DNA from: Desulfotalea psychrophila LSv54
GTDB lineage: Bacteria > Desulfobacterota > Desulfobulbia > Desulfobulbales > Desulfocapsaceae
Direction: 5' to 3'
Length of the DNA stretch: 32,000 nucleotides
Assembly: GCF_000025945.1 (NCBI RefSeq)
Contig: NC_006138.1
Coordinates: forward strand, 1-32,000
The position numbers were made by a program, and so were the translations under genes. The notes below the pieces were generated by a model. That model was not told the origin of the DNA. It saw only the letters and a list, made by a program, of their open reading frames with translations, and ran no database searches. Below, one piece after another: positions 1 through 28,482 of the stretch. The stretch's first letter is position 1. Every line of letters begins with the position of its first letter.

Positions 1-65
1 GTCTCTACCTTGGTCTGTGTTTTTAATTTCAGTATAGCCTCATTCTCGCATCTGTTTTTGAGTCC

Positions 66-114
66 TTTACCTAAAAGATCTTTCTCTGTGTTCTCATTTT
101 CCTCTGTGGTTAAC
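66..114. repeat. Intergenic mosaic repeat unit (CTCTGTG...CTCTGTGGTTAAC orientation)
   Basis: The sequence tttacctaaaag...ctctgtgttctcattttcctctgtggttaac uses the same word order as ~40 other copies in the window. It overlaps the 3' end of the methyltransferase CDS. Confidence 0.85.
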
Positions 115-774
115 TTTTTTTAGCTTTTCGCTTCCCTTAATCAGCAAAAAGACATCCCCTCCCACAAGCTGAACCGACGCCTGCAATTTTTTACCAAGCC
201 ACTGAACAGTAGACTCCGAAAAGAAGCAAATATGGGTGGGGTCATTCTTATAGTGCCAATTGGCAAAGAGCTCCTTTGTAAGCACCCGCTTAGTCATCAC
301 AGCCAGCACACCCTCAGGCTTTAAACAGGCCCATAACCGCTCTATCTCCATCCAAGGATCCTGTAGATGTTCAAAGACCTCTGAACTGGTGATAAAATCA
401 TACTGCTCGGCAAAGACCCTTTGATCAGGGGCGTAAATAGGATCATAAATGGCCATTACATGCCCCCTCTCCTCAAAGAGTATGGAGAGAGTCGGCCCCG
501 GCCCGCAACCAAAGTCAAGACCACAGGCACCAGCAGCTATGCGCGCAAGCACAGGTTGCAAGAGACGGGATAAAAACTTTCTGTAACCGGCATCGTCTGG
601 ACTGTTTTGGTGGAGGTCATACTCCCTCTTACTCTCCTGCTGCGAGAGATGAAAGGAGTCTGGGACAAAGACAAGATCGCAGACCGGACAGTGCAGATAC
701 GTCCTGCGCCGGTCACGATGGTAAAAATGGCTTGCGCATTCTTTACAGAGAGGGCACATATCATGGTCTTGCAT
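94..774 (-). CDS. Class I SAM-dependent methyltransferase with N-terminal CxxC...CxxC zinc ribbon
   Basis: ORF 94..795. It has SAM motif I LDFGCGPGP and N-terminal CPLC...CPVC. The ORF-track start at 795 is TTG. The ATG at 772-774 (MQDHDMCPLC) is preceded by GAGG about 6 nt upstream, so it is preferred. Confidence 0.8.
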   Translation of the reverse strand: MQDHDMCPLCKECASHFYHRDRRRTYLHCPVCDLVFVPDSFHLSQQESKREYDLHQNSPDDAGYRKFLSRLLQPVLARIAAGACGLDFGCGPGPTLSILFEERGHVMAIYDPIYAPDQRVFAEQYDFITSSEVFEHLQDPWMEIERLWACLKPEGVLAVMTKRVLTKELFANWHYKNDPTHICFFSESTVQWLGKKLQASVQLVGGDVFLLIKGSEKLKKVNHRGK

Positions 775-809
775 AAAAAACCTCACTAAAAACAAGGGTC
801 AATGAATCT

Positions 810-1634
810 ATGTTACAACATACCTTCTGCCATATATCAGGTCTTGGCGCAAAAACCGAAAAAAAACTCTGGGAAGCTGGCATCCACAACTGGGGGCAAA
901 TCTCCTGTTCCACCGCTGTAAGACTTTCGCCAACCAGCAGAGCTGATCTCGCCCAAACCTTGGAAGAATCGCTTACGGCACTAGAGAACAATCCAAAATA
1001 TTTTACAAAAAAGCTGGCCAGCACGGAAAGTTGGCGAATATTCAACCAGTTCAGAGATCAGTCGGCCTATATTGATATCGAGACCACGGGCCTCAGTGAT
1101 GATGCAGAGATCACCACCATCGCCGTCTATGATGGCAAGAAGATCATGCACTATATCCAGGGACACAACCTTGACGACTTCGTCCGGGATATACGGAGAT
1201 ATAAGGTACTGATCAGCTACAGCGGTACCGGATTTGACCTACCCGTTATCGAAAGATACTTTAAAATCAAACTCGACCATGCCCATATCGACCTGCGCTA
1301 CGTCCTGGCAAGTCTTGGTATCAGAGGCGGTCTGAAGGGATGCGAAAAGCAGATCGGCATTGACCGCGGCGACCTCGATGGCATTAATGGCTGCTTTGCC
1401 ATCACTCTCTGGCGAGCATACCAGCTACAAGGAGATCAGGCTGCCCTGCAAACTCTGGTCGCCTACAATATTGAGGACAGCGTCAACCTTGAACGACTTA
1501 TGGTGGAGGCCTATAACCGCAAGCTACTGGCAACCCCCTTTGCCGCTGAGATGAGCCTACCTAGCCCCAAACTACCTGTCCTACCATTTCAGGCGGACCG
1601 GGATTGCATCAGACGATTAGGCGGCGGGCAGTAG
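810..1634 (+). CDS. RNase H-fold (DEDDy-type) 3'-5' exonuclease-like protein, YprB/COG3359-like
   Basis: The N-terminus ISGLGAKTEKKLWEAGI is HhH-like. Other motifs are YIDIETTGL (Exo I), SGTGFDLPV (Exo II-like) and AYNIEDS (YxxxD, Exo III). It is divergent from the methyltransferase with only ~35 bp between the starts. Confidence 0.75.
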   Translation: MLQHTFCHISGLGAKTEKKLWEAGIHNWGQISCSTAVRLSPTSRADLAQTLEESLTALENNPKYFTKKLASTESWRIFNQFRDQSAYIDIETTGLSDDAEITTIAVYDGKKIMHYIQGHNLDDFVRDIRRYKVLISYSGTGFDLPVIERYFKIKLDHAHIDLRYVLASLGIRGGLKGCEKQIGIDRGDLDGINGCFAITLWRAYQLQGDQAALQTLVAYNIEDSVNLERLMVEAYNRKLLATPFAAEMSLPSPKLPVLPFQADRDCIRRLGGGQ

Positions 1635-1640
1635 TCCAAA

Positions 1641-2564: not shown

Positions 2565-2604
2565 CCCTCACCAAGTCCCCAATAAGCCAATCCCAAGCAA
2601 GAGG

Positions 2605-3453: not shown

Positions 3454-3523
3454 CTCTATAAAACCGTATTCAAGTGTAGTAGCACATCAGAGATGCGCTT
3501 ATTCGAGCTAAGGCCTTAGCCAA

Positions 3524-4294: not shown

Positions 4295-4384
4295 AAAAAA
4301 GATCCTCTTTGATCAACAGATAAATTAACATTTAATAAATTGCGTAAGATACAAGATCCGTCCCATAGTAACAAGAAAAAAGAC

Positions 4385-4484
4385 AGATACGAAGGGCAAG
4401 GACAAGAAAGCAGTTAACCACAGAGAAGGAGAGAACACAGAGAAGAACATTTTAGATAAAGAGCAAAAAACCTGAAGCTGTCAG
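4385..4484. repeat. Intergenic mosaic repeat unit (GTTAACCACAGAG orientation)
   Basis: In order: agatacga, gttaaccacagagaaggagagaacacagag (4413-4443), ttttagataaag (4450-4461) and agctgtcag (4476-4484). Confidence 0.85.
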
Positions 4485-4508
4485 AAAGGATAGAACCAAA
4501 AAGATAAA

Positions 4509-4568
4509 GCAGTGGCAGTGGCTTTTTACCAAAAAACCTCTGTGCTCTCTATGATCTCTGTGGTTAAC
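4509..4568. repeat. Intergenic mosaic repeat unit (inverse orientation), dyad partner of 4385-4484
   Basis: The sequence gcagtggcagtggctttttaccaaaaaacctctgtgctctctatgatctctgtggttaac has a core that is the reverse complement of the core at 4413-4443. Confidence 0.85.
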
Positions 4569-4680
4569 TTTTTTTTACAGTTTTTTGTCGCGACACAAAA
4601 AAGGGACAGAACCCATCAGGTCCCGTCCCGCATCATAACGCAAAAAAACAACCCATCTCCACACTCACCGCCTAGCGGTC

Positions 4681-4850
4681 AAGCATAGCGGAATGGCGAA
4701 CCTTTAGCTGTAAAGCGCTAGCCATTTCAGATTTATGCTTTACTACTTTTTAATTAATTTGCTCTGTGTACTCTGTGGTCTCTGTGGTTAACTTTTTTCG
4801 TTTTTAACTAACAGCTGACAGCTGTAGTTATCTTAAAGCTGACAGCTCAA
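4681..4850. repeat. Intergenic mosaic repeat block
   Basis: In order: aagcatagcggaatggcga, ttaattaatt, ctctgtgtactctgtggtctctgtggttaac (4762-4792), then aacagctgacagctgtag...aagctgacagct words. Confidence 0.8.
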
Positions 4851-4853
4851 TTC

Positions 4854-5543: not shown

Positions 5544-5590
5544 GGCAGCCCCCTCTTTTCTGTTTGTCTTTAACAACATACAATGCAGGC

Positions 5591-5634
5591 AGTTATCCTA
5601 TCAGGTCTAACAAAAAAACCATGATAGGATAACT
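5591..5634 (-). other. Perfect 13-bp stem hairpin between fusA and the ATPase gene
   Basis: The arm agttatcctatca (5591-5603) pairs with tgataggataact (5622-5634) around an 18-nt loop. No U-tract follows it on the minus strand, so it is not a canonical intrinsic terminator. It may be an attenuator or processing site. Confidence 0.4.
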
Positions 5635-5661
5635 TCAGAGTAGCCGGTTACTGCAATTTTA

Positions 5662-7749
5662 TCAACCGTTCTTACGCTCTTCCTCGTGGGCTTTGATCAA
5701 ATTATCACCAACGGTCTTTGGAACAGGCTTGAAGTTTGCGAACTCCATGGTGAACTCTGCTTTACCCTGAGTAAGGGAACGAAGAGTGGTAGAATAACCG
5801 AACATTTCAGAAAGAGGCACCTCTGCTTCAATCACAGAATATGTACCTTCTTCGTTAGAACCAATGATCATACCACGACGCTGGTTGATGGATCCCATAA
5901 CAGCACCTTGGAATTCAGAAGGACCTTCAACGCTTACCTTCATGATTGGTTCCATGATAACAGGCTTAGCCTTCATGTAACCATCTTTAAACGCACCAAC
6001 AGATGCAATTTGGAAGGCAACATCGGAGGAATCAACTGCATGAAAAGAACCGTCATTGATAACACAACGAACGCCGGTAATTCCTGCACCACAGAGATGA
6101 CCTTTCACCAGAGACTTTTGGAAACCTTTGTCACAGGAGCTGATAAATTCACGAGGAATTGCTCCACCAACAATCTTATCAACAAATTCGTAATCGCCCT
6201 CATCGAGAGGCTCCATATAACCTGCAACACGACCGAACTGACCAGTACCACCAGTCTGCTTCTTGTGGGTGTAGTTGAACTCAGCACGCTGAGTAATGGT
6301 CTCACGATAAGAAACCTGAGGCTTACCTACTTCAACTTCAGCAGCATACTCACGCTTCATACGCTCAACGTATACTTCCAAGTGAAGCTCACCCATACCG
6401 CTGATGATGGTCTCATTGGTCTCGTGGTCAACGAAGGTACGAAAGGTAGGATCTTCCTTGGTGAAACGGTTGAGAGCCTTGGACATGTTAATTTGAGCTT
6501 TGTTATCTATGGGCTTAATAGAAAGGGAAATTACAGGCTCAGGCACATGCATAGAGGTCATGGAACAGTTTACTGCATCATTGGTGAAGGTATCACCGGA
6601 AGCACAGTCAACACCGAAGAGGGCAACGATATCGCCAGAGCCCACGCCATCAATCTCTTCCATCTCATCGGAGTGCATACGACAGAGACGACCGATTTTC
6701 ACCTTACGACCGGTACGACGATTGTATACGGTATCGCCCTTGGTCAACTGCCCCTGATAGGTACGTACATAGGTCAACTGACCATAACGACCATCTTCAA
6801 GTTTGAAGGCAAGCATGATAAGAGGATCTTCATCATTGTTGGTTACCGCAAACTCAGTTTCCTCGTTATCAAGGTCAAGACCAATATTCTCAACATCGGT
6901 AGGACATGGGAGATAGGTCTCAACGGCATCAAGAAGCGCCTGAACGCCCTTATTCTTATAGGCAGAGCCCATGAATACAGGGGTGAATTCAAGAGCGATA
7001 GTTCCCTGACGAACAGCCTTATAGATAAGATCGATATCAACATTCTCGCTATCCTCAAGAAGTGCTTCCATCAGCTCTTCTGAGAACATGGAGATCTCTT
7101 CAAGAAGAGTTTCACGCTTCTCTGTTGCCTCATCGAGCATCTCAGCAGGAATATCTGTGATACGAATCTCATCGCCATTCTCGCCTTCATAATAAACGGC
7201 TTTCATGGTCACAAGATCAACCATACCAACAAGATCACCTTCAAGACCAATTGGCATCTGCATCATATGTGCATTCAGTTGCAATTTTTCCTGAAGCTGT
7301 CCGGTTACCTTGGCTGGATTGGCGCCGGTACGATCACACTTATTGATAAAAGCAATACGTGGAACATTGTAACGAGTCATCTGACGGTTAACGGTAATAG
7401 ACTGAGACTGAACTCCACCAACGGAGCAAAGTACCAGTACCGCGCCATCAAGTACACGAAGTGCACGCTCTACCTCTACGGTAAAGTCAACATGGCCAGG
7501 AGTATCGATAATATTAATATCAGTACCCTTCCAGTTACAGAAAGTTGCGGCAGACTGAATGGTAATTCCGCGCTCTTTTTCAAGCTCCATGGAATCCATC
7601 TTGGCACCAACTCCATCCTTACCACGTACTTCGTGGATTGCATGAATTCGGTCTGTATAAAAAAGAATACGCTCAGTCAGAGTCGTCTTCCCAGAGTCAA
7701 TATGGGCACTGATACCAATATTACGAACTTTTGATAAATCTTTACTCAT
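5662..7749 (-). CDS. fusA: Elongation factor G (mitochondrial/spd-like subfamily)
   Basis: It has G1 [17 protein letters not shown] and NKCDR motifs and full EF-G length (695 aa). The N-terminal segment [26 protein letters not shown] resembles mtEF-G1-type factors. It is not in an rpsL-rpsG-fusA-tuf context here. Confidence 0.95.
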
Positions 7750-8055
7750 GGCTTGCTGTCCTCTAGCAACCGGCCCGGCCGGCTCTTCTCTAGGCTTTGA
7801 GAAAATAAAAAATGAGATACCACTGATTTGTAGTTCTCATCACCCCTTCCAGCACAACGCTAGAAGCTCACTTATAGTGGCAATATTAACATAAAACCAC
7901 CGCTTTTACCTTATAATGAACCGCATAGAATACACCGCAATTCCTTTCTGCGCTATAAAAAAAGAAATATATTTTTGCTTTTTTACTCCGCAAAGATGCG
8001 CCCGTCCGCCATTTTTTCTCCAAATGAAAAGAGAAGGAAGGCAAAGAAAAGAACA

Positions 8056-8086
8056 GTTAACCACAGAGGAAGGAGAGTACACAGAG
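8056..8086. repeat. Mosaic repeat core (GTTAACCACAGAG orientation)
   Basis: The core gttaaccacagaggaaggagagtacacagag forms the left arm of the 7750-8887 spacer. Confidence 0.85.
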
Positions 8087-8212
8087 AAAAACAGCTCTAA
8101 GTAAACTGCTTTGTGAACACAAAGAGGACTTTTTAGGTGAAAAACAAATGCAAAAAAGAACAGCCACAAAAACACCCCCACCCCTATGTGGCAGTAACAG
8201 TTTACAAAAAAT

Positions 8213-8850
8213 CTCTGTGATCTCGGTTCCAGTGGTTAACTGCTTTTTAGCTTTTTAATTAATTCCCTCTGTGTACTCTGTGATCCTGCGTTTAGTGCTT
8301 ATAGCTGGTTTCTCTGCTATTTTTTCGCTTTTTCTAGCATCCGCCACTCCGCGGTGCTCCACTGCTCATATCTAGCATCTTTTTTCTGTCTCTGTGATCT
8401 CGGCTCCAGTGGTTAACTGCTTTTTAGCTTTTTAGCTCTTTAGCTTCTTAATTAATTCCCTCTGTGTACTCTGCGATCCTGCGTTTAGTGCTTATAGCTG
8501 GGTTCTCTGATATTTTTTTCGGTGTTTCTAGCATCCGCCGCTCCGCGGTGCTCCACTGCTCATATCTAGCATCTTTTTTCTGTCTCTGTGATCTCGGCTC
8601 CAGTGGTTAACTGCTTTTTAGCTTTTTAGCTTTTTAATTAATTCCCTCTGTGTACTCTGTGATCCTGCGTTTAGTGCTTATAGCTGGTTTCTCTGCTATT
8701 TTTTTCGCTTTTTCTAGCATCCGCCACTCCGCGGTGCTCCACTGCTCATATCTAGCATCTTTTTTCTGTCTCTGTGCTCTTCAGCCAGTGGTTAACTGCT
8801 TTTTAGCTTTTTAATTAATTCCCTCTGTGTACTCTGTGATCCTGTGGTTA
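8213..8850 (+). repeat. Tandem array of a ~177-194-bp composite unit, 3 full copies plus a partial fourth
   Basis: Units start at 8213, 8390, 8584 and 8770 (partial). Each reads ctctgtgatctcggYtccagtggttaac-tgctttttagc-ttaattaattccctctgtgtactctgtgatcctgcgtttagtgcttatagctgg-...-ttctagcatccgccactccgcggtgctccactgctcatatctagcatc. Copies are >90% identical by eye and differ mainly by short indels of tagcttttt. Confidence 0.9.
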
Positions 8851-8887
8851 GAGCTACCCTCTAACTGCTAGTCTTTCCTGATGGTCC

Positions 8888-10249
8888 ATGCTAAACTGCC
8901 CCCATCAGAATAACTCCCCCCTAAAAGGACAATCCATGTCAGCAATTAGCGAAGATAGCGTATTCACCTCCCTCAAACAAGAGGGCCCTCTGGCAGTACC
9001 AAAATCTGTTGTCATAGATAAAACATTCAGCCCTGAATCACGGCTGTGGGTGAAAAATATCTGTACCAGTAGCACCCATATCACAAAATATCGCGCCCTC
9101 AGAAGCCAAATATTTGCCCTGCTCAACATCAGCCACTTCAAAGAGATAGAGGCCCTGATCAAGACCCCCCAATGCCAACAGGAAAAAAGCCAACGGGCCT
9201 ACTCATTACTGGCCAATATGTTTGACATGCAGGGTTCCAATCGGGAAATAGAGGCCCGGGTCAATGAATATGCCAGAACAGCCGATGCGGTGGTCAACTC
9301 CCTGAAAGAAAAAATCCTCGCCCCCTATACCGCTTATATTGCCACCACCAATGAAATAGCGGTGGTTAACAATCCCATCGAACTGATTCTGATCATGTTT
9401 AACGATCGCTATCACCGCAAGGCTCGATTTGAGGCCCGACGCAAACTGGTACTGATGAGTCTTGCCGGAAGCATCGACCAACGGGAGCGTGAAACAAAAA
9501 TTGAAGATAAATTTTCAAAATTTCTGAATTTTCTCAACTGTTATGTCTGGAGCAAAAAACAAAAAATAGGTGAGCACGACATTGCCTTCCTTCACTCCAT
9601 CCACAGGGAAGACAATTTTAGCTGTAGCAGCGTCAAGGTGATTTCCCCCAAGGAACTGAAGAACTATTCCACTGGCAAGGGCATCAAGCAGACCCTGCTC
9701 AAGAGGAGAAGATTTACCGTACGGGACAAAGATATTCCTATCCATGTATCTGTACGCAAAAAACCACCTGAGGCCAAGGTACTCAAACTGCTCAGAAAGA
9801 ACCAAAAAAACCCTGCTGTTGCCGTAGATGATGAGCTCGGGCTTATGGCAGTGCTGGATTCCATGGCAGATATCAAGACCTTCCAAAACCATCTGACCCA
9901 AAGTGCAGCAGAGGCCAATTCCTTCCTGGCACTGGAAAACATTTCTGACTCACTCAGCGAAAATTCTCTCTACAGATCGCATGCAATTGGCTCGAGCAAC
10001 AAGACCCCTATGATGAAATTTTTTGCTCGTCTTGGTGGCATGCGGGTAGAGTTTATCATCCATACCAACAAATCCTGGCTTAACTATATGTACCAAAAGG
10101 ATGTGGCCCACGACGAGTATGAGGTCAAAAGATTTTTTGACTCCGGAGTAGCCGAGCTTCTCTTTCCCAGGAAAATATTTCACCTTGATCACGGCAAAAT
10201 CCGCAACGAAATGATCCAGCTCTTCCGACAACACATAGAGGGAGAATAA
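8888..10249 (+). CDS. Hypothetical protein with a C-terminal RelA/SpoT-like (small alarmone synthetase fold) region with substitutions at conserved positions
   Basis: By-eye alignment to RelQ-type motifs gives four matches: IHVSVRKKPPEAKVLKLLRK vs IEHVKSRVKSPESILKKLKRK, DELGLMAVLDSMADI vs DIAGVRIICSFVEDI, YRSHAI vs YRSLHL, and VEFIIHT...AHDEYEVK vs VEIQIRT...EHKIYYK. About 280 aa at the N-terminus are unassigned. An alternative start at 8935 (MSAISEDS) has AAGGA upstream. Confidence 0.4.
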   Translation: MLNCPHQNNSPLKGQSMSAISEDSVFTSLKQEGPLAVPKSVVIDKTFSPESRLWVKNICTSSTHITKYRALRSQIFALLNISHFKEIEALIKTPQCQQEKSQRAYSLLANMFDMQGSNREIEARVNEYARTADAVVNSLKEKILAPYTAYIATTNEIAVVNNPIELILIMFNDRYHRKARFEARRKLVLMSLAGSIDQRERETKIEDKFSKFLNFLNCYVWSKKQKIGEHDIAFLHSIHREDNFSCSSVKVISPKELKNYSTGKGIKQTLLKRRRFTVRDKDIPIHVSVRKKPPEAKVLKLLRKNQKNPAVAVDDELGLMAVLDSMADIKTFQNHLTQSAAEANSFLALENISDSLSENSLYRSHAIGSSNKTPMMKFFARLGGMRVEFIIHTNKSWLNYMYQKDVAHDEYEVKRFFDSGVAELLFPRKIFHLDHGKIRNEMIQLFRQHIEGE

Positions 10250-10266: not shown

Positions 10267-10385
10267 AGCTGTAGCAGTGAAGCGTTAGCGGAATGGCAAG
10301 ACTTGAGCTATCAGAAAATGCAACGGCAAGGGCGGTTAACCACAGAGGGTGGGAGAACACGGAGGAAAACTTTTTAGATAAAGGA
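10267..10385. repeat. Intergenic mosaic repeat block (GTTAACCACAGAG orientation)
   Basis: In order: agctgtagcagtgaagcgttagcggaatggcaag, gagctatcag, gttaaccacagagggtgggagaacacggag (10335-10364) and tttttagataaagg. Confidence 0.85.
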
Positions 10386-10617
10386 CGGAAAGATAGCAGT
10401 AGAGCGTAGCAGGTAGGATGAGATATAGTTAGAAAATATTTCCTCAGAAGAAATGCCTGTTAATTATTTAATAATGCTTAAAAAACATGGCAAGAGTCGC
10501 TCCTCCTCTTGGTAAGGGGAGGCGGGGGTGGGGTTTGTCGCTTTTCCCGCAAGTACGGAACTAGCATGAACAAAAAATTTTCATAGACTAAACTCGCTGA
10601 TTGCAAAGCAAAGAATC

Positions 10618-10995
10618 CTATTTTTGTTGTAGTAATTCGACTTTAGTAGCAATATTTTCTGCAACTGCAAGACCGTTGTTGAGGACATCGACGTTTGTGT
10701 AGTGGAGAATGGTGAGGCCAAGTGATTTGAGAAAATCTTCGCGCTGTTGATCATGTTCAACGGCACCTGATTGGAAATGACTATCGCCATCTACCTCAAT
10801 GACAAGTTTGAGTTCATGACAGTAGAAGTCGACTACGTATCTGCCGATGCTATGTTGGCGACGAAACTTGCAACCGCAACCTTTTCGCCTGAGGTAAAGC
10901 CAGAGCCCTCTTTCCGATGGCGTGAGATTGTTGCGAAGCTTTTGTCGGAGGGTTTTATGCTTTTTGAGTGTGAAGGCTCTTTTGCTTGTTGTCAT
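10618..10995 (-). CDS. DUF559 (Vsr-like endonuclease fold) domain protein
   Basis: The typical DUF559 core is present: LTPSERGLWLYLRR...FRRQHSIGRYVVDFYCHELKLVIEVDGDSH. ATG at 10993-10995 (MTTSKRAF) is preferred. The ORF-track start at 11034 is TTG. Confidence 0.85.
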   Translation of the reverse strand: MTTSKRAFTLKKHKTLRQKLRNNLTPSERGLWLYLRRKGCGCKFRRQHSIGRYVVDFYCHELKLVIEVDGDSHFQSGAVEHDQQREDFLKSLGLTILHYTNVDVLNNGLAVAENIATKVELLQQK

Positions 10996-11009
10996 TTTCT
11001 TTTTAGCAT

Positions 11010-11068
11010 AACACTCTTTTACGAGATGTGGCAAATGGCTTTTTTATGCCTTTAAAAGAGTGTTTTTT
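11010..11068 (+). other. 12-bp perfect inverted repeat plus T-run in the DUF559 leader region
   Basis: The arm aacactctttta (11010-11021) pairs with taaaagagtgtt (11053-11064), followed by tttt. An inner ggca/tgcc pairing is possible. On the + strand it looks terminator-like (antisense to DUF559). On the - strand it lies in the 5' leader. Confidence 0.35.
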
Positions 11069-11160
11069 GGCATGATTTTCTAGGCAAGGCTGTTTTAGTA
11101 AATTGATTTTACTTGTTAATGCACAAACCCCATCCAACTTCCCCTTACCAAGAGGAAGAG

Positions 11161-11220
11161 CTGTAGCAGTGGAGTAGCAGCGAAGCGGCGGCAGTGAAGC
11201 ATAGCGGAGTGGCGACTGCC
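11161..11220. repeat. Mosaic repeat words (AGCAGTGGAG / GCGGAGTGGCGA orientation)
   Basis: The sequence is ctgtagcagtggagtagcagcgaagcggcggcagtgaagcatagcggagtggcgactgcc. Confidence 0.8.
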
Positions 11221-12327: not shown

Positions 12328-12665
12328 GAGCTATAGCAGTGGAGCACCGCAGAATGGCGAGCCGACAGCTAATAGCTTACAGCTTACAGCTTCTTTTCTC
12401 TCTTTGTGTCCTTGGCTGCCGTGGTTAATCGTTTTTCCGCCACGCTCCACTGCTCAGCTTTTTACCAAAAAACTAGCTCTTTGCTCTTTAATTCATTCCC
12501 TCTGTGTCCTCTGCGACCTCTGTGGTCAACTTTTTCGCTTTTAGGCAGTCGCCACTCCGCTCTGCTTCGCTGCTGCAGTTTACCAAAAAATCTCTGTGTC
12601 CTCTGTGGTTAACTTTTTTTACTTTTTACTTTTCGCCACTTCGCTGCTACTGACAGCTGACAACT
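12328..12665. repeat. Intergenic mosaic dyad with three inverse-orientation units
   Basis: The left part is gagctatagcagtggagcaccgcagaatggcgagccgacagct plus 4 AGCTWAY heptads (12367-12394). The right part has cores at 12399-12430, 12499-12530 and 12592-12613 (ctctgtgtcctctgtggttaac), then tcgccacttcgctgctactgacagctgacaac. Confidence 0.85.
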
Positions 12666-14015: not shown

Positions 14016-14040
14016 AAAAGCCTCACAAAAAATGATAAAA

Positions 14041-14204: not shown

Positions 14205-15249
14205 TTACTGTTTTCTTCCCAACATCCCAGCAATATCACCCTTCAACACCTGAAAGTACGCGTATATTTCACAAGCAGCATTTTCTGTAAAGACAGGCTC
14301 CTTTAAAAACTTTTCCCGAACCGTCTCCTCCCTATATATTTTCTCGATAAGGGCTAACGACTCTCGATTATCCGAGTCTAACTGCCAAAAGATAATTCGC
14401 CGAGGATTCAACACCCCCGGTTCAGGTTCAGCCCCCCCCCAATAAACAGGAATTGCTCCAGCCTCAATTGCCTCAAATATCTTTTCTGTGACATAGCCCT
14501 TAGCCGGTGAGTTCTCAGGACAGATATTAAACAAAAATTGCTGTAAATACTCCTTTCTTATTATCAGCAAAGGCCACCCGCAACGATTCATCATTATGAC
14601 ATAAATCTCCAGCACAGGCAACGGGCGCAATAGTCGAAATGGCTGCCACCACATCTGACCTGCGTAAAGAAAAACCATCGTGGCGAGCAACTAAGGCAGC
14701 AAACTTATTTTTTTTCCCATGGCTCTGCGCCTCAATTTCAGCCAAACGCTGCCTGATATCTTCCAGGGAGGCGTTCACTGCAAATTCTGGGCTGAAAATA
14801 TAGGTTAACCACAGAGGAAAACGACGATATCCCGGCCGTTCATCATAATCAAACCCCATGGCAAGGGTGGGGAGACCTTGAAGATAATCCTTATATTGGC
14901 GATGATAGGGCAGATGTAGATTCTCTCCTGAAAAAAAGAGCGAGGGTACAGTACACACCCTGAGCAGAAGTCGAGTTAAAGCAAAGTCGGTAAAGAGAGA
15001 GACGAGCAACAGCTGAGGCCTATACCACGATACGACAATTTTTTCCCCGATACTTTCTTGGCAAAAACGAAAAAACCAACTGCGGGAGGGAGCATCTTTT
15101 TCCTTAAAATGATTGCCAAAAACTGCAATTCGTACCGAACTATCAGCCCCCTTTCTCCCCAGAAAATCCCCTGCTACCGACAGCAGAAGGGATAATCCTC
15201 CGCCAATACGTTTTTCCCACTTCTTCCAAATTGACCAAATTTTTTTCAT
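14205..15249 (-). pseudogene. GT10-family alpha-1,3/4-fucosyltransferase-like gene, disrupted by a +1 frameshift
   Basis: Two overlapping ORFs (14527..15324 and 14205..14690) join as ...FADNKK|EYLQQFLFNICPENSPAKGYVTEKIFEAIEAGAIPVYWGG. This matches the GT10 core (H. pylori FutA ...VGNKSEFLSQYKFNLCFENS..GYVTEK..IPIYWG). The frame switch maps to AAGAAAGGAG (plus-strand 14550-14559), and deleting 1 nt restores the frame. A G9 run on the coding strand lies at 14432-14440. The likely start is MKKIWSIW at 15249. Confidence 0.75.
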
Positions 15250-15363
15250 TATAACCCCACAAAGAGCAAGTGCACTTTGCCAATACCAAGAACTCTTACA
15301 GGAAGAACGGCAATCACACACCACATAACGACCGCAAACTCACAAACCGTCTGACCGAACGCT

Positions 15364-17433: not shown

Positions 17434-17640
17434 AAGGCAACACTTAATGAGACTTTATCAGAGGACCTGACAAAATATGCAAATTTAACAAGGTAAACTA
17501 TTGACATCATTTCAATCTCTTCCGTATTCCACCTAAACAATTCCCCTACATATTACCAATTTTATGCATACATTAGGGGGTAAATATCCTTAAACACCCT
17601 GCAATTTTTTAACAACGAGGTTCCACAATACAGAACCACA

Positions 17641-19349: not shown

Positions 19350-20576
19350 TTATACATTATCCTCGGCAAGTTCTTCTCCCTGCCACTTCTTAGAAGAGAG
19401 CAAGGCGGGCACCAGAATAGTAAAAAGATATCCAGTAGAGCTACCACCTAACCAGCTATCACAGAGAGAACCAACAACAAAGGTAAGCAAGACCCCCTGC
19501 AACAACAGGCGATACCTGCTCTCCAGTGTAAAAGAGGCCCGAGCCGCAAAGAGCAGAGCAGCAATAAAGAGGGCCATCCCTGCAAGCCCCGCCTCTACTC
19601 CAACAAGCAGAAATGCATTATGGGGCCCCTTCATAGGAGGAACCCGAGTCCCCCTAATCAACTCACCGTGAACCACAGGAAAAGAGGCAGGACCAGTACC
19701 GAGAAAAGGTGCCTCGGCGATGAGCTTTAAAGAATTGATCTGCCACGCTATGCGTAGGGAAACATTGTTAAACTTCCCATGAGAAATCTCTTCTTGGTAA
19801 TTTGTTACGGTATTATAGAGTTCTCGCCCCTGATTCATAAACTTAGGGGAGGTCTGAACCAGTACAACAAGAGAGAGAGCAAGCATTAGTCCACCAACAA
19901 ACATTTTCTTCCATGAGAGTGTTTGCACCAGCAGCAAGAGGGCAAGGGCAAAGAAAACCACCATCCCTGTCAAACTACGCTGCAGATAAAAAATATCGGC
20001 AAAGCTCAGCAGGGCAACTCCACCCCAAAACAATCGGTGCAAGATGGAAGAATCCTTTAATCTATGGCAGGAGACATAAAAGAGCAGGGCCATCATACCA
20101 CTACTAAAACTCGGGTGGATGGGTGAATTATACGCACCAGCCCAGCCATAGCTTCTCGAAATCTGGCCAAAATAGACGAAAAATGTCTCTATCAGTAGAA
20201 CAACAAAGGCGGCCAAAAAGGCGTTAACGACCCAATCCACCCCCTTTCGCTGTCGTCTGCAGAAAAATATTACCATTGCCGGAAAAAGCAGGCCGCGCAT
20301 GCCCTTAACCCGATCAAGCACCTCATCCATCGGCCCCACCGAATAGGATATGCCAACACAGTAGAGGATAAAGAGGGCAAAGGCAGAGAGAGCCATTGGG
20401 TACCTGCGCAAGGTCGGGACAAACTCTTTATAGCCCCGTGCCAACAGCCAAGACAAGATAAAGAGAATAGTGGTAATCGTCTTTCCCGTAGTCGTTATAA
20501 CAGAACAAAAACAGGCCAAAGCGATAAAAGTCACTCCAGCCCACTCCAGATAATTCATTTTTTTTTCAGTCAACAT
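19350..20576 (-). CDS. O-antigen ligase/polymerase family (Wzy_C domain) membrane protein
   Basis: It has about 10 or more TM segments. A periplasmic loop carries GTGPASF...[19 protein letters not shown], typical of Wzy_C/O-antigen ligase-like proteins. Confidence 0.75.
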
Positions 20577-20600: not shown

Positions 20601-20891
<291 letters not shown>

Positions 20892-21943: not shown

Positions 21944-22255
21944 ATTTAACCACAGAGGACGAGGAGGACACAGAGAGGACATCTTAGGTAAACTGCTTAA
22001 GAACAAAACCATGAGAGAGATTAGTAACTCCCAAAAGATCGCCCTTTGATCTTTAATTTTTTTCTCCGCCCGTCGCCCGTCCACGATGCTCCAATGCTAT
22101 AGCTCTCTCTTCTCTCTATGTCTTTGACTGCAGTGGTTAGCGTTTTCGCTTTTTAAATAATTACCTCTGTGTTCTCTGTGACCTCTGTGGTTAGTCGCTG
22201 TTTCTCTTGCTTTTAGGTAGTGGCAGTTCACCAAAAAACCTCTGTGGTTAATTGT
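21944..22255. repeat. Intergenic mosaic dyad
   Basis: The left arm is tttaaccacagaggacgaggaggacacagagaggacatcttaggtaaa (21945-21990). The right arm has cores at 22112-22140, 22164-22194 (cctctgtgttctctgtgacctctgtggttag) and 22239-22252. Confidence 0.85.
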
Positions 22256-22262
22256 CCTTCTT

Positions 22263-23219
22263 TTAATCTCTATAATTATCCTGATTCGATAAAAACCAGG
22301 CATAGGTCTCAGCCAAACCCTCACGAAGAGATATCTGCGCCCGCCAACCAAGATCAGCCAGACGAGAGACATCCATCAACTTGCGAGGAGTACCATCGGG
22401 TTTGCTGCTATCAAAGACAAGCGCGCCGGCAAAACCCACAACCTCAGCCATAGTCTCGGCAAGCTCACGGATAGTGCAGTCCAGCCCGGTACCCACATTA
22501 ATGTGGGAGAGCATGGGTTCGGTGTGCTGACTATAAATATCCCTGTCAAGATTCATCACATGGACCGAGGCCGCCGCCATATCATCTACGTGCAAAAACT
22601 CCCGCATCGGCGTCCCCGTACCCCAGACCACAACCTCTGCTGCACCGGCTAGCTTGGCCTCATGGAAACGACGGAGCATGGCGGGAATCACATGACTGTT
22701 CTCGGGATGAAAATTATCATTCATACCATAGAGATTGGTGGGCATCACCGAACGGTAATCTACCCCATACTGACGATTATAGGATTCACAGAGCTTGATC
22801 CCGGCAATCTTGGCCAGGGCATAGGGCTCATTGGTGGCCTCAAGTACCCCGGTGAGCAGGGCAGACTCCGCCATGGGTTGCTCAGCAAGCTTGGGATAAA
22901 TACAGGACGAGCCCAGAAACAGGAGCTTTCTCACCCCATGCAGATAGGCCTGATGGATGATATTGGCCTCCATCATCATATTCTGATAGATGAATTCGGC
23001 AGGATAGGTGTTATTGGCATGAATCCCGCCCACCTTGGCAGCGGCCAGATAAACCACGTCCGGTCGTTCCTCCTCAAAAAAATTCGCCACAGCCCGCTGA
23101 TCCACCAGATCCAACTGCGCATGGGTCCGGGTCACAATCTCTCCCGCGCCCATCTCCTCCAACCTTCTGACAATGGCCGATCCGACCATGCCCCGATGCC
23201 CTGCTACATATATTTTCAT
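22263..23219 (-). CDS. fcl: GDP-L-fucose synthase (GDP-4-keto-6-deoxymannose 3,5-epimerase/4-reductase)
   Basis: Similarity to E. coli Fcl is high along the whole length ([63 protein letters not shown]). ATG at 23217-23219 has GAGGAAGAG upstream. The ORF-track start at 23234 is TTG. Confidence 0.95.
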
Positions 23220-23247
23220 AACACTCTTCCTCAATCATAAAAACAAC

Positions 23248-23281
23248 ATTTACCACAGAGTCCACAGAGGACACAGAGAAC
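23248..23281. repeat. Mosaic repeat core (CCACAGAG x3 orientation)
   Basis: The core atttaccacagagtccacagaggacacagagaac lies immediately upstream of fcl. Confidence 0.8.
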
Positions 23282-23493
23282 TACTTTTTTTTATCAAAAA
23301 CAAAACAGAATAAAAGCTAGCATACTATCGAAGACGGCAGCACAAAGAATTGCAGAACGCACTGAAAAGGTGATAGGAAAAATCGCTAGGCTGAAATAGA
23401 CTCATTCCAGATAGGATTGATATTTCTAAGAAGCCCACCTAAGAAGTGTTCACCCTAAAACTTTTCTCTGTAGTTGAAATCAAAACAGGGACA

Positions 23494-23890
23494 GTTAACC
23501 ACTGCTTAGGAGTACACAGAGAGGACCTTTTAGGTAAAGGACCAAAAGCGTTAAGGCTAGAATCATTTGAAAAAATAAATTGTTCCAAATCAATCTGTTA
23601 TTATGCTTTTTAAATAATTCCCTCTGTGTGCTCAGTGCTCTCTGTGGTTAGTCGCTGTTGTTGCTTTTAAGCAGTCGCCATTCCGCTCGCCACTCGTTGT
23701 CGCTCGCTGCTACTCCACTGCTCAGTAGTTCAAAAAAAGTCCTCTGTGTCCTCGGTTCCAGTGATTAACTATCCTTCTTTTTCTCGCTGTTTCTCTCGTT
23801 GTTGCTTTTAGCTTTTCACCAAAAAAGCCTCTGTGTCCTCGGTTCCAGTGGTTAACCCTTTTCGCTTTTGATCTTTTAGGCAGTGGTTGA
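23494..23890. repeat. Intergenic mosaic dyad with three inverse-orientation units
   Basis: The left arm is gttaaccactgcttaggagtacacagagaggaccttttaggtaaagg (23494-23540). The right arm has cores at 23620-23651, 23741-23769 and 23828-23856, with tcgccattccgctcgcc...ctccactgctcag between them. Confidence 0.85.
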
Positions 23891-23901
23891 TGTAGTTGTC
23901 T

Positions 23902-24273
23902 TTACAAAACAAGACGTCGAACACCATCCACCAAGCGAAGCACATTAAAATTAATCAGCAAACCTGTCCGCACCCCAGCAAGCTTCATATAGGTCAAGAC
24001 CTGGGCCGTATGAAGTGGCAACAGCTTATCAACCACCTTCAGTTCAACAATAAGTTCATCAGCAACTAAAAGATCAATACGGTATCCAGCATCAATCTCA
24101 ATATCCTTATACCGGATGGGCAAGGCAACCTGTGTACGCACAGCGATGTTCAGACATTGCAATTCATACAACAAACAGCGCTCATAACTAGATTCAAGCA
24201 AACCTGGACCAAGCTGACGATGAACTTCTATGGCACAGCCAATAACCGTACCAGTCAACTCCTTAGTATCCAT
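23902..24273 (-). CDS. GxxExxY protein (PD-(D/E)XK nuclease-fold, PDDEXK_3-like)
   Basis: The motif LGPGLLESSYERCLLYEL (GxxExxY) is followed by IDLLVADELIVELK. The true start is MDTKELTG at 24271-24273. The longer ORF-track N-terminus (to 24450) only translates repeat words such as PHKQWL. Confidence 0.8.
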   Translation of the reverse strand: MDTKELTGTVIGCAIEVHRQLGPGLLESSYERCLLYELQCLNIAVRTQVALPIRYKDIEIDAGYRIDLLVADELIVELKVVDKLLPLHTAQVLTYMKLAGVRTGLLINFNVLRLVDGVRRLVL

Positions 24274-24275
24274 AA

Positions 24276-24845
24276 CATCCTCTGTGTTCTTGATTCCAAT
24301 AATTAAAAAAAAAACAATAACAGAAAGAACAAGGACGGCTAACCACTGCTTATGAGGACACGGAGAAAGACTTTTATATAAACCGCTTAAAGCAAAAAAC
24401 AAATTCGAAAATATAAACACTAGAACCCCTAAGAACAACTCAGCTAACATGTTGGATTTTATTTTTGTCTTTCATCTCGTATCTCTGCTTTTTAAATAAT
24501 TTCCTCTGTGATCTCTGTGCCCTCTATGGTTAGTCGCTGTGGCTTTTTAAATAATTACCTCTGTGTCCTTGGTTGCCAGTGGTTAACCGTTTTTCTCGCT
24601 GTTCCTCGTTGCTGTTTTTCTCGCTTTTGCTGTGGCTTTTTACCCAAAAAACCTCTGTGTTCTCATAAGCAGTGGTTAACTTCTTTTTTCTGCTTTTTCT
24701 CGCTATTCCGCTCGCCGCTACGCTGCTGCTGTTGCTGTGGTATTTTACCTAAAATCCTCTGTGATCTTGGTTGCCAGTGGTTAGTCGCTGTGGCTTTTTA
24801 AATAATTACCTCTGTGCGCTCGGTTGCAGTGGTTAACTTTTTCTT
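24276..24845. repeat. Intergenic mosaic dyad with five inverse-orientation units
   Basis: The left arm is ggctaaccactgcttatgaggacacggagaaagacttttatataaacc (24337-24385). The right arm has catctcgtatctctg, then cores at 24503-24533, 24558-24587, 24652-24680, 24756-24784 and 24809-24837. Three of these are preceded by tttttaaataattWcctctgtg. Confidence 0.85.
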
Positions 24846-24848
24846 TTT

Positions 24849-25964
24849 TTATTCCTTAGTGACGGGAATTGTGTAACCGTGCAATTTCAACAAAGCATGC
24901 TGCTTAGCCTTAGCAAGATCGTTAGCCACCATCTCAGCACACATCTCCTCCACGGTGATCTCAGGGACCCAACCAAGCTTCTCCTTAGCCTTAGTAGGAT
25001 CACCAAGCAGGGTCTCCACCTCGGCAGGACGGAAGTAACGGGGATTCACTCGAACCACCACATCACCCACCTGAACCGCAGGGGCATCTTCACCCACAAT
25101 AGCCTTTACTGTTCCAACCTCAGCCAAGCCCTCACCGCTGAACTCAAGCTCGAAACCAGCTTCCTTGGCCGATAGCCGGACAAAGTCACGTACCGAAATC
25201 TGCCTGCCCGTAGCAATAACAAAATCATCGGGAGCATCCTGCTGGAGCATCATCCACTGCATACGGACATAATCCTTGGCGTGGCCCCAATCACGCAGGG
25301 CATCCATATTACCAAGGTAGACACACTCCTCGAGTCCCTGGGCAATATTGGCAAAGGCACGGGTAATCTTGCGGGTAACAAAGGTCTCACCGCGACGAGG
25401 CGACTCATGGTTAAAGAGAATGCCGTTACAGGCATACATACCGTAGGATTCACGGTAATTTATGGTAATCCAATAGGCATACATCTTGGCCACTGCATAG
25501 GGTGAGCGGGGATGAAATGGGGTCGTCTCAGTCTGGGGAATCTCCTGCACCTCACCAAAGAGCTCCGAAGTCGAGGCCTGATAAAAACGGGTCTTCTTCT
25601 CAAGCCCCAAAAAGCGAATGGCCTCCAAGATGCGTAGGGTGCCATTGGCCACAACATCGGCAGTATATTCAGGAGCCTCAAAAGAGACGGCCACATGGGA
25701 CTGAGCAGCAAGATTATAGACCTCATCGGGCTGCACCTCTTTGAGGATACGGGTAAGATTGGAGGAGTCAGTCAAATCACCGTAATGGAGAAAAAACCTG
25801 GGATTCTCGGCATTGGGATCCTGATAAATATGATCAATCCGCTCGGTATTAAAGGAGGAGGCCCGCCTCTTGATGCCATGTACCTCATAACCCTTCTCCA
25901 ACAACAACTCCGCCAAATAGGACCCATCTTGGCCGGTAATACCGGTAATCAATGCCTTCTTCAT
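24849..25964 (-). CDS. gmd: GDP-mannose 4,6-dehydratase
   Basis: It is near-collinear with E. coli Gmd ([83 protein letters not shown]). ATG at 25962-25964 has GGAG upstream. Confidence 0.95.
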
Positions 25965-26132
25965 AATCACTCCACAATATATTTTCAGAGAAACCCTATA
26001 AAGCCTAATGGTAATTTATCCAGCACCACAATAGAAGCTTACAGGACAAAAAACAACTTCTTTCCCATTGCCGAACAGAGCCAATGGTCTGCATGGAATT
26101 TTATAAAACATGACCCTCAAAAACAGAAAAAA

Positions 26133-26745
26133 GTTAACCACTGGCTGAAGAACACAGAGAGGACCGTTTAGGTAAAAGACAAAAAATACAGCGATAAGCT
26201 GGAGCAGTGGAGTATTACGGAATGGCGAGCTGTCAGACAGAAAAGAGATGTGAGATGCGCCACAGGCAACTGTCATGTCAAGCGCTAATCTCAGTTCTCT
26301 TTTCAGCTTTTTCTAGCATCTAATAGCTGTAGTCCCCTGATAGCTGATAACTCAAAAGCATACAGCTTCTTTTCCCTCTGTGTACTTGGTTACAGTGGTT
26401 TTAAGCTTTTCTCGCTATGTCTCTCGCCTTTCGCCACTTCGCTGCTATCTTTTAGGTAGTGGCTTTTTACCAAAAAATCTCTGTGTGCTTGGTTGCAGTG
26501 GTTAGTCCTTTCTTGCTGTTATATTTTATCGCTGTTGTCGTTGCTGTTGTAGTTACTTTTCGCTTTTCGCTTTTTAAATAATTTCCTCTGTGTTCTTCAG
26601 CCAGTGGTTAACTGCTTTTTAGCTTTTTCTCGCTGTTTCTCTCACTGTTTTTTCGCTTTTCGCTTTTTAAATAATTTCCTCTGTGTTCTTCAGCCAGTGG
26701 TTAACTGCTTTTTAGCCCTATGTGGCCCTATGTGGCAGGATAGTT
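26133..26745. repeat. Intergenic mosaic dyad including a 67-bp direct duplication
   Basis: The left arm is gttaaccactggctgaagaacacagagaggaccgtttaggtaaaag...ggagcagtggagtattacggaatggcgagctgtcag, then degenerate heptads gagatgtgagatgcg. The right arm has cores at 26374, 26478, 26585 and 26678. 26557-26623 is duplicated at 26650-26716. It ends with cctatgtggc x2. Confidence 0.85.
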
Positions 26746-26961
26746 TACGCCCTTACTCTTGCCCTTTCTGACACCTATCGGTATTCCTGCCCTCACTTCT
26801 GAGCAAAAAAAGTGGTTTGTTGCAAAAATTAGCCTCACTAAGACTCCACAAAATGGGGTAAGATCAAAATGGCTATTTTTTATATGGAATCAATATTATG
26901 CTGAAGCTGTTATCTTAATACAATTTTGAAAAGTAAAAAATCAATTTAGAGAGGCAGAGGG

Positions 26962-27990
26962 ATGGGAGCATTAAATATCCTGGTGACAGGCGGGGCTGGT
27001 TATATTGGCAGTCATACCTGTCTGGAATTGCTAGAGGCAGGCTATGAGGTCACCGTTGTGGATGATCTGTCAAATTCGTGTTATGAAGCCCTAGCCCGGG
27101 TGGAGACACTTACTGAAAAAAAAATAACCTTTCATCAGGTAAATGTCCTTGACCAGCAGGCCCTCGATGCTGTTTTTGTAAGTAGCAAAAAGCCCTTTGC
27201 CGCAGTGATTCATTTTGCGGGACTAAAGGCAGTTGGTGAGTCTGTGGCCGAGCCACTCCGTTATTATCATAATAATGTCACGGGAACCCTTGTCCTCTGT
27301 GACCTTATGGCTAAGCACGGGCTGAAAAATATTATCTTCAGCTCTTCGGCAACGGTTTATGGTGATCCAGCAACTGTCCCCATAACCGAAGATTTCCCTC
27401 TTTCCTGTACCAACCCCTACGGACGCACCAAATTGATGGTAGAGGAGATTCTTGCCGATCTCCATGGGGCAGACCATGAGTGGAATGCCTGCCTGCTCCG
27501 CTATTTTAATCCTGTCGGAGCTCACAAAAGCGGGCGGATAGGAGAAGACCCCAATGGCATTCCCAATAACCTCATGCCTTATATTGCCCAGGTCGCCATT
27601 GGTCGTCTTGATTACCTGTCAGTTTTTGGCAATGACTACCCTACGGTCGATGGCACGGGGGTGCGGGATTATATTCATGTGGTCGATCTGGCCAAAGGGC
27701 ATGTCTGTGCTGTAAAAAAAATTCTTGAGGGTCGGGGCATCACAACCTACAATCTGGGAACAGGTCATGGCTGCAGTGTCCTTGAGATGGCGAGCGCCTT
27801 CTCCAGAGCCTGCGGCCATGATGTCGCCTATAAAATAGTAGCGAGACGGGCAGGTGATGTAGCAGTATATTGTGCAGACGCAACCAAGGCATTGGATGAG
27901 CTCGGTTGGTCAACCTCCCTCGGCCTTGAGGACATGTGCGAAGACACCTGGCGCTGGCAGAAAAATAATCCCACGGGCTATCGGCAATAG
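26962..27990 (+). CDS. galE: UDP-glucose 4-epimerase
   Basis: It has [21 protein letters not shown], the catalytic YGRTK (YxxxK) and the DYIHVVDLA motif. Length is 342 aa, with ATG and GAGG upstream. Confidence 0.92.
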
Positions 27991-28170
27991 GGAGAGGATA
28001 CAAGACAGTGGGATAAAGCCGTTACTTGCCTTCGCTAGAAGGCTAAATCCATACCTACACGAAGGATGCATCAGCCATTCACCCAATGGATATTTGCACT
28101 CTCGAAGGGATAAGATTGCTCAAGCGGATAGCTTATGGATATCGAGACACGGCCCCAAAAAAACAAAAGA

Positions 28171-28482
28171 AGAGCTGTGAGCTATCAGCTGTCAGTTAAA
28201 GCAGCACAGCTCAAGAGCTACATGCTGTCCTCGCAGTTAATCTCCCGCTATTTGCCTTCGCCATGCCGCTACGCTTCACTGCTGCCATTACGCTACGCCA
28301 CTCGTTGTCGCTCGCTGCTGCTTCACTGCTGCCATTTCGCTCGCCACTCGTTCGCCGCTACGCTGCTGACGCCACTCGTTTGACGCCACTCGCTGCTACT
28401 CACTGCTACTCACTGCTACTCGCTGCTACTCCACTGCTACAGCTTTCTTCCCCTCCGTGTACTCACAAGCAGTGGTTAACCC
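28171..28482. repeat. Intergenic mosaic dyad rich in CACTGCTGC / CGCCACTCG words with a 10-bp phased sub-array
   Basis: The left arm is agagctgtgagctatcagctgtcagttaaagcagc. The right arm has repeated gctacgcttcactgctgccatt / tcgctcgccactcgtt words, then 4 x cRctgctact decamers (28391-28430), then cctccgtgtactcacaagcagtggttaac (28452-28480). Confidence 0.85.

Follow-up and report, generated by a model that had tools for sequence, protein, structure and literature searches.

Palindromic repeat arms in intergenic spacers of Desulfotalea psychrophila and their possible partnership with the GxxExxY family of small nuclease-like proteins

The first 32,000 nucleotides of the Desulfotalea psychrophila LSv54 chromosome (NC_006138.1; hereafter the window, to which all arm counts for this genome refer) contain long intergenic spacers filled with a short repeat that forms palindromes, here termed an arm, and a pair of these arms encloses a gene for a small protein of the GxxExxY family. 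On balance, and with some reserve, we read the repeats as a palindromic family that is linked to a nuclease and has expanded in this lineage, in the manner of the repetitive extragenic palindromic (REP) sequences with their REP-associated tyrosine transposase (RAYT), and of NTS with Ssn (Chenal et al., 2025; PMC11893778).

Each arm is 28–30 nt long and has the form AAAGCA-GTTAAC-CAC(A/T)G...-CACAGAG(G). More generally, TTMAC (GTTAAC in the window) is followed by two to four C-R-C-N-R-A-G heptamers every 8–9 nt, the window heptamers being CACAGAG or CACTG.... With at most one mismatch allowed, the 13-nt core GTTAACCACAGAG was matched 11 times (0.06 expected) and the 9-nt word GTTAACCAC 38 times (4.8 expected). 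An nhmmer profile built from 21 arms returned 41 matches at a threshold of E ≤ 1, and 39 of these are intergenic in a window that is 75% coding; the remaining two comprise one match over the last codons of the open reading frame (ORF) 94–795 and one weak match within a gene (E 0.16). Of 42 CTCTGTG words on the plus strand 3 fall in genes, as do 7 of 20 CACAGAG words. An earlier note on this DNA had estimated about 40 copies of the core, nearly all outside coding sequence, and the profile bears this out. It is also correct that the orientation is not random: nine arms read GTTAACC... (L) and 31 read ...GGTTAAC (R), the GTTAAC end points outward, and, of the six spacers with arms in both orientations, five have the L arms before the R arms. 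The strict polarity that had been described holds as a general trend, with one exception (the arm at 24276). The arms and the gene that they enclose are distributed as follows.

82–119, minus strand: R arm over the 3' end of the methyltransferase ORF 94–795 (nhmmer E 3.6e-6).
4413–4568, unstranded: complete 156-nt palindromic element, with L arm 4408–4444 and R arm 4533–4574 (profile and folding).
4757–4797, minus strand: R arm with three CTCTGTG heptamers at a 9-nt period and the end GGTTAAC.
8051–8088, plus strand: L arm (nhmmer E 9e-7).
8208–8855, minus strand: array of eight R arms, including a 186-nt unit repeated 3.3 times (8242–8855; Tandem Repeats Finder (TRF) score 993, 89% matches).
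10332–10367, plus strand: L arm downstream of ORF 8888–10249 (nhmmer E 5.7e-6).
12405–12618, minus strand: three R arms in a convergent spacer.
14040–14101, plus strand: 3.4 copies of AGATACG, followed directly by L arm 14065–14101 (nhmmer E 4.9e-10).
21946–22251, unstranded: L arm 21946–21977 and R arms 22114–22139, 22159–22193 and 22241–22251 (profile and inverted pairs).
23252–23862, unstranded: L arms 23252–23279 and 23491–23523, R arms 23616–23650, 23739–23770 and 23824–23862.
23902–24273, minus strand: GxxExxY (PDDEXK_3) gene encoding 123 amino acids (TIGR04256, E 2.1e-42).
23493–24681, unstranded: arm pair around the GxxExxY gene, 23493–23521 and 24653–24681 (93% complementary, 1131 nt apart).
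24276–24842, unstranded: gene-proximal arm 24276–24298 (minus), L arm 24336–24368 (plus) and five R arms at 24498–24842 (minus).
26128–26711, unstranded: L arm 26128–26161 and R arms 26373–26400, 26474–26504, 26581–26618 and 26674–26711 (pairs 94% complementary).
28267–28486, minus strand: arrays of CAGTGAG and CGAGTGGCG-type words at a 10–14-nt period (TRF), then R arm 28451–28486 (nhmmer E 2.5e-8).

Inverted pairs in these spacers are real, with 94% complementarity between 26127–26159 and 26586–26618 and 83% between 21947–21975 and 22165–22193. Both strands of element 4413–4568 fold as a long hairpin, at -55.8 and -61 kcal/mol (z -4.9 and -7.0). The description of every spacer as one long palindrome goes too far: elsewhere the spacers are lopsided, with a single L arm opposite tandem arrays of R arms, of which the 186-nt unit at 8242–8855 is an example. 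Tandem units are 89–100% identical between copies, which indicates recent amplification; the 93-nt unit that contains R arms 26581–26618 and 26674–26711 is present in copies that are 100% identical. The accompanying words are less orderly than the fixed sequence that had been said always to be present. The word directly inside the arm is TTTTAGRTAAA, TTTTTTGGTAAA or AATTATTTAAAAAG in about 24 of 37 arms, a GCAGTGGAG-type word comes next in 13 of 37, and the short tandem repeats AGATACG, GCTAAAAA and GCGAAAA are found on the outer side of the GTTAAC end rather than the inner. The spacers of compact operons and the block at 28.5–32 kb are free of arms, in agreement with the earlier note, as are spacers 3454–3523, 5580–5661, 17434–17640 and others, so that not every transcription unit is bracketed.

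The words in the arrays at 28267–28440 are those that had been reported as AGCAGTGGAG and GGAATGGCGA. Those of the CAGTGAG type resemble CAGTGAG-type arms that flank some GxxExxY genes elsewhere (loci L143, L149 and L155), and these arrays may represent a second arm family nested in the first.

A close relative provides a comparison for the same region. The syntenic 22-kb locus of a Desulfotalea metagenome-assembled genome (MAG; L121) keeps the gene order, with an elongation factor G (EF-G) that is 90% identical, and within this locus there is no CTCTGTG, no GTTAACC and no match to the arm profile; its spacers are shorter. The arms are therefore lineage-specific gains relative to this relative rather than conserved signals. 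The spacer between the His_biosynth and AAA_22 genes measures 204 nt and has an ordinary terminator in the MAG, versus 559 nt in D. psychrophila. This D. psychrophila spacer (4295–4853) still has a canonical intrinsic terminator (4629–4603, minus strand) between two repeat units; a scan of the window gave counts of intrinsic terminators near those of shuffled sequence, and this one, separate from the repeats, is the one clear terminator. The absence of arms from the relative and the retention of a canonical terminator between two units both speak against the suggestion that the repeats are operon-boundary insulators or terminators. The methyltransferase ORF 94–795 is 13 codons longer than its orthologue and reaches into a repeat arm, the original stop codon having apparently been replaced when this arm was inserted. 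An assembly artefact, which the earlier note had named among the outcomes that would undo it, is effectively refuted: the window is part of a finished chromosome of 3,523,383 bp, and the same arms are found in more than 100 independent assemblies, including multi-megabase contigs, complete chromosomes and those of Pseudoalteromonas.

In a genome collection, the motif GTTAACCACAGAG-N(2-12)-CACAGAG was found at at least 120 loci across many phyla. Hosts among the matches listed include Acidobacteriota, Planctomycetota, Verrucomicrobiota, Chloroflexota, Nitrospirota, Beta- and Gammaproteobacteria, and Bacteroidota. What the foreign loci share with the window is GTTAAC with two to four CACAGAG heptamers; the other words of D. 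psychrophila are not common to them. Among the matches listed, an inverse partner lies 67–533 nt away at 49 of 124 sites, and 16% of sites fall inside long ORFs, versus 70% of random positions. Other repeats with an 8–9-nt period (CACGAAG, CACGGAT, CGCAGAT and CGCGGAT) occur near CACAGAG hairpins in six loci (L034, L048, L079, L082, L083 and L108), and GxxExxY genes in the loci selected by protein, described below, have several of these heptamers at their flanks as well.

The GxxExxY gene is the sole gene in the window that is enclosed by an arm pair, and its ATG is preceded, at a distance of 5 nt, by a degenerate arm with the end CACAGAGG. The core at 24337, taken by the earlier note for the left core of a spacer, in fact lies upstream of this gene, which that note had not recognised. 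The note had also suggested a genome-wide look for a co-occurring RAYT or other nuclease gene; the window ORFs gave no Y1_Tnp match, and the GxxExxY gene is a nuclease gene present in the window. Elsewhere, a GxxExxY gene is exactly bracketed by arms in three phyla (L025, L049 and L055), and in an unbiased scan of loci not selected by protein, GxxExxY was the main cargo of the arms. A 122-amino-acid ORF without a Pfam match, which also lies inside CACAGAG arms (L043, 1263–1631, a gammaproteobacterial MAG), may belong to a second family carried as cargo by this element.

The association was also approached from the protein side, using 80 metagenome loci (taxonomy unassigned) picked by the GxxExxY protein alone. 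Over these loci, arm heptamers numbered 96 upstream in forward and 86 downstream in reverse orientation, versus 12 and 18 in the opposite configuration. The inverted complementarity of the flanks reached a score of at least 30 at 60 of 75 loci; among the controls, 1 of 91 (shifted) and 9 of 75 (direct orientation) did so. The two arms of a locus co-vary: heptamers differ by locus (CACAGAG, CACGGAG, CACGAAG, CGCAGAG, CGCGGAG, CACAAAG, CAGTGAG and others, at least nine classes), the dominant heptamer is identical in both arms at 35 of 41 loci, and the median arm score is 42 within a locus versus 22 between loci. The first heptamer follows AC in 86 of 125 arms, with TTMAC followed by C-R-C-N-R-A-G as the consensus at the outer boundary. 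Median distances from the arm are 23 nt to the start codon and 18 nt to the stop codon.

That CACAGAG lies upstream and CTCTGTG downstream of a gene was considered as a sign of gene polarity and set aside as trivial, since a palindrome reads arm...arm' on either strand. What the arrangement does show is that GxxExxY lies inside a pair and ordinary genes lie between elements. Ordinary genes look bracketed because the elements fill the spacers with their GTTAAC ends outward, and the pattern ...GGTTAAC [gene] GTTAACC... that had been ascribed to each gene or operon is merely the complement of this.

The mismatches between the arms bear on whether these act as RNA. They have no strand bias (128 G:U-compatible in sense, 104 in antisense), and many of the 183 transversions fall between heptamers. 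Together with the 8–9-nt period, this indicates that a repeated word is conserved rather than a continuous stem, which speaks more for a protein that recognises the arms than for a simple RNA helix, and does not settle whether DNA or RNA would be recognised. Phasing of the heptamers with the DNA helix was rejected on the difference between 8–9 and ~10.5 nt. On an RNA account, the arms would be host-selected hairpins for operon boundaries or mRNA stability, or else a stem enclosing the GxxExxY mRNA (through Shine-Dalgarno sequestration or RNase III), solo hairpins being decayed cassettes. The elements do fold stably as RNA from both strands, the arms are intergenic, co-oriented with their spacers and close to start and stop codons, and heptamer ends (GAG or GAGG) resemble a Shine-Dalgarno sequence, with CACAGAGG just before the ATG of the window gene; the 23S rRNA intervening sequences are a known case of a small ORF within an RNase III stem. 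The absence of the arms from the same spacers of the close relative, the terminator retained between units, and the conserved word without strand bias all count the other way, tandem arrays of arms in one orientation have no pairing partner, and about 40 gene losses in 32 kb would be implausible. We regard this account as quite unlikely. At gathering score, Rfam had no match in the window (by E-value only chance-level microRNA matches, E ~0.3–0.6), and it had nothing at the hairpins of 18 foreign loci.

The protein encoded in the window is 100% identical to the NCBI entry "GxxExxY protein [Desulfotalea psychrophila]" and belongs to PF13366/TIGR04256, a family whose function was unknown in a 2012 survey of PD-(D/E)XK proteins and which comprises 30,965 cluster representatives at 50% identity. 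Residues D67, E77 and K79 are invariant and fit a D...ExK motif. The AlphaFold2 model (predicted local distance difference test, pLDDT, 84.8) matched only PD-(D/E)XK nucleases, and these weakly: Cas4, lambda exonuclease, Hjc and I-Bth0305I. A sequence search of the PDB gave no match. Another copy in D. psychrophila is 95% identical to the window protein, and the next relatives, at 65–72% identity, are from cold marine Gammaproteobacteria. Of 72,556 plasmid records 8 contain GxxExxY, phage records have none, and the 186-nt repeat unit had no plasmid match. Some relatives (P0241–P0255) have 263–295 amino acids (one has 240) with two copies of the domain, and are either tandem fusions or read-through of adjacent cassettes; two adjacent GxxExxY genes are present in L208.

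The genomic setting also recurs. The window has housekeeping genes at 0–8 kb, including EF-G (5662–7749), and from ~8.9 kb a surface-polysaccharide locus with a wzy-like gene, glycosyltransferases, gmd, fcl, a UDP-glucose dehydrogenase and a DegT aminotransferase. The order gmd-GxxExxY-fcl (22263–25970) is found again, with hairpins around the gene, on two unrelated marine metagenome scaffolds (L203, L206, L207), with identities to the window of 80% (gmd), 71% (GxxExxY) and 73% (fcl), and this recurrence suggests block co-transfer or a preferred site. On Pseudoalteromonas chromosomes (L208 and L209), GxxExxY likewise lies in a polysaccharide locus, among ~1-kb spacers full of a 135-nt hairpin unit in six to ten copies. 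Arrays of arms or hairpins stand next to GxxExxY in L203, L206, L208 and L209. The Pseudoalteromonas loci contain perfect heptamer microsatellites as well (TAGCTCC in 9.6 copies, CCGAAGC in 7.7–11.7 and GTTAAAG in 12.7), so that their spacers parallel those of the window, with its 186-nt unit, 41.6 copies of AGATACG and 5.7 copies of AGCTATC. A gene for a Y1_Tnp protein in L206 (3132–3971, 6 kb from GxxExxY) was considered as a link to RAYT and discarded, its flanks having no CACAGAG arms.

Taken together, these observations lead us to a tentative proposal, for which we would put the chance somewhat short of even: GxxExxY proteins and arms made of heptamer arrays may constitute a third, previously undescribed partnership of a nuclease with hairpin repeats across phyla, in which each protein would recognise its own arm variant and arms would spread without the gene and expand in some genomes, preferentially in surface-polysaccharide loci. 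As for the mechanism, the most likely course on our main reading is that the protein would recognise arms that have probably folded as single strands, and would cut at them; repair or recombination would then deposit gene-less copies in intergenic DNA, slippage or unequal recombination would multiply these into tandem units, and other short words and heptanucleotide microsatellites would accrete around them. The earlier idea of a binding array for an unknown protein is plausible in this light, and the GxxExxY PD-(D/E)XK protein of the window is a specific candidate. Whether the family is selfish or domesticated, and by which mode the arms spread, we can only infer; one domesticated role might lie in modulating how polysaccharide gene modules recombine.

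Several observations weigh against linking the arms to this protein. Its binding and cutting of the arms is itself something we infer. No target-site duplication is evident at 4413/4568 or in example elements (in some, the palindrome extends outward; the analysis was not systematic), and no pair of an empty and a filled site was resolved, the orthologous spacer being too diverged to align. At the window gene the proximal arm is degenerate and there are many additional nested arms, and arms outnumber the gene in the window by about 40 to 1, with only two paralogues recorded for the genome. Heptamer class tracks protein relatedness weakly (57.8% versus 55.3% identity; nearest-neighbour concordance 19 of 56 versus 20% expected), so that tight co-evolution of protein and site is not demonstrated, and it partly tracks the G+C content of the flanks (rho 0.37).

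These last points fit an alternative in which the hairpins, REP-like and of host origin or otherwise mobilised, were there before the gene, which homes into their loops, while the arms spread by other means or by recombination alone. Insertion into a hairpin would be expected to leave a gene in a palindrome's loop, as is seen, and hairpin-only copies far outnumber those with the gene, which is present at 3 of 124 sites among the matches listed; insertion sequences that target REP sequences, such as ISPpu9, are a precedent. Nevertheless, across phyla, 80% of the GxxExxY genes are flanked by arms of the same architecture at closely constrained distances from start and stop, which requires either co-transfer or an extremely strict target, and no other mobilising gene was seen beside the arms, the Y1 transposase gene of L206 being without arm flanks. 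We consider this alternative unlikely. We rate as very unlikely the possibility that the arms serve as binding arrays for some nucleoid or replication protein of the host with no relation to GxxExxY, such as DnaA. Repeated words at a fixed 8–9-nt period would suit such a protein, and TTAACCACA differs by one mismatch from what we take to be the DnaA-box consensus, TTATCCACA, a resemblance that we set aside. A heptamer that varies freely between elements yet agrees within each misfits a universal host protein, the period is off the helical repeat, and the arms are absent from the close relative.

Two further features lie in the repeat-rich part of the window.

10499–11161, minus strand: DUF559 gene 10618–11034 (PF04480, E 2.4e-29) with its own 37-nt inverted repeat (78% complementary), in a repeat-rich spacer.
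20601–20891, unstranded: AGATACG microsatellite of 41.6 copies (TRF, 99% matches), 25 nt upstream of the start of the wzy-like gene.

The DUF559 protein is Vsr-like and also of the PD-(D/E)XK type, which makes its gene a second small nuclease gene in the window, with inverted flanks of unrelated sequence. The AGATACG array precedes a wzy-like gene on the minus strand (19350–20576), and could make this a contingency (phase-variation) locus. Two overlapping minus-strand ORFs, 14205–14690 (with a weak match to GT10 fucosyltransferases) and 14527–15324, may be a frameshifted glycosyltransferase gene. Most genes of the window are on the minus strand, the GC skew is negative throughout, and the window has no tRNA or tmRNA genes.

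Our search of the open-access literature for GxxExxY, PDDEXK_3, TIGR04256 and Desulfotalea repeats found no published account of the arms, and in open-access papers the sequence words themselves led to primer matches only, with no description of the arms. The proposed partnership offers a concrete, testable function for a very large family of "hypothetical" small nucleases (GxxExxY/PF13366), and would account for a prominent kind of intergenic repeat that is met repeatedly between Acidobacteriota and Proteobacteria. It would also extend an emerging rule, seen with RAYT and Ssn, that dispersed hairpin repeats of bacteria are paired with a dedicated nuclease gene flanked by the repeat. If this is true, the family of ~31,000 clusters could hold many sequence- or structure-specific nucleases, site-specific members would be potential tools, as has been proposed for Ssn, and arms in surface-polysaccharide loci might modulate the recombination or uptake of gene modules. 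For annotation, the warning is that long, repeat-filled spacers in polysaccharide loci represent invaded DNA, not regulatory architecture.

Among known systems, CRISPR arrays and integron attC sites had been discounted by the earlier note, rightly so: the arms occur in both orientations and the units between them are themselves repeated, which differs from CRISPR, and they lie on both sides of a gene as tandem-heptamer stems without conserved bulges, with no integrase in the window, which differs from attC. The intervening sequences of 23S rRNA are similar in that a small ORF lies within long inverted repeats scattered over many phyla, but their protein is a four-helix bundle (S23p) and they are located in rRNA and removed by RNase III, whereas the elements here are intergenic and have no RNA-strand signal. 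The BOX elements of Streptococcus pneumoniae (boxA-boxB(n)-boxC) are also intergenic and modular, with ordered words, a variable number of modules and no known transposase; their sequence is unrelated, and we know of no nuclease gene associated with them.

Miniature inverted-repeat transposable elements (MITEs), including the Correia/NEMIS elements of Neisseria, are short, non-coding and intergenic, have terminal inverted repeats, are often co-transcribed, form long hairpins and have a gene-carrying version with the same ends. Element 4413–4568 and the foreign elements of 67–533 nt are likewise small and non-coding with terminal inverted repeats. The difference is that the partner with the same ends encodes a 123-amino-acid PD-(D/E)XK protein here, with no DDE or known transposase, and that the arms are internally repetitive.

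The likeness in logic to bacterial interspersed mosaic elements (BIMEs) that the earlier note had seen is supported. The arms are short, imperfect, multicopy extragenic palindromes, as REP sequences are, and they share with the REP/BIME and REPIN-RAYT systems the mosaic clusters, the lineage-specific expansions and an enzyme gene in one or few copies with inverted repeats. However, the GTAG/CTAC motif is missing from the arms, none of the window ORFs was found to encode a Y1 transposase, the flanked gene encodes a different fold, and REP sequences are species-specific whereas the arm consensus is common to many phyla.

Ssn is a small GIY-YIG nuclease whose gene is flanked by its own hairpin repeat, NTS; it cuts this repeat in single-stranded DNA and modulates transformation, the repeats cluster around surface-protein genes, Ssn homologues have the repeat nearby in 71% of cases and on both sides in 42%, and 81% of genomes with over 100 repeats encode Ssn (Chenal et al., 2025; PMC11893778). 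The arms and GxxExxY resemble Ssn and its repeat (SRM) in having a small single-domain nuclease gene with hairpin repeats on both sides, many extragenic copies in several phyla, a location at surface-structure genes, and a gene architecture like that of an insertion sequence. They differ in the enzyme (GIY-YIG, cd10448, for Ssn; PD-(D/E)XK, PF13366 and TIGR04256, for GxxExxY) and in the repeat, SRM being single hairpins of 20–50 nt and the arms two to four heptamers that usually enclose the gene; activity on single-stranded DNA has been shown for Ssn, whereas GxxExxY is known here from sequence and model. Membership in either the Ssn or the REP-RAYT system thus fails on enzyme fold and repeat motif, while the architecture and logic of both are matched.

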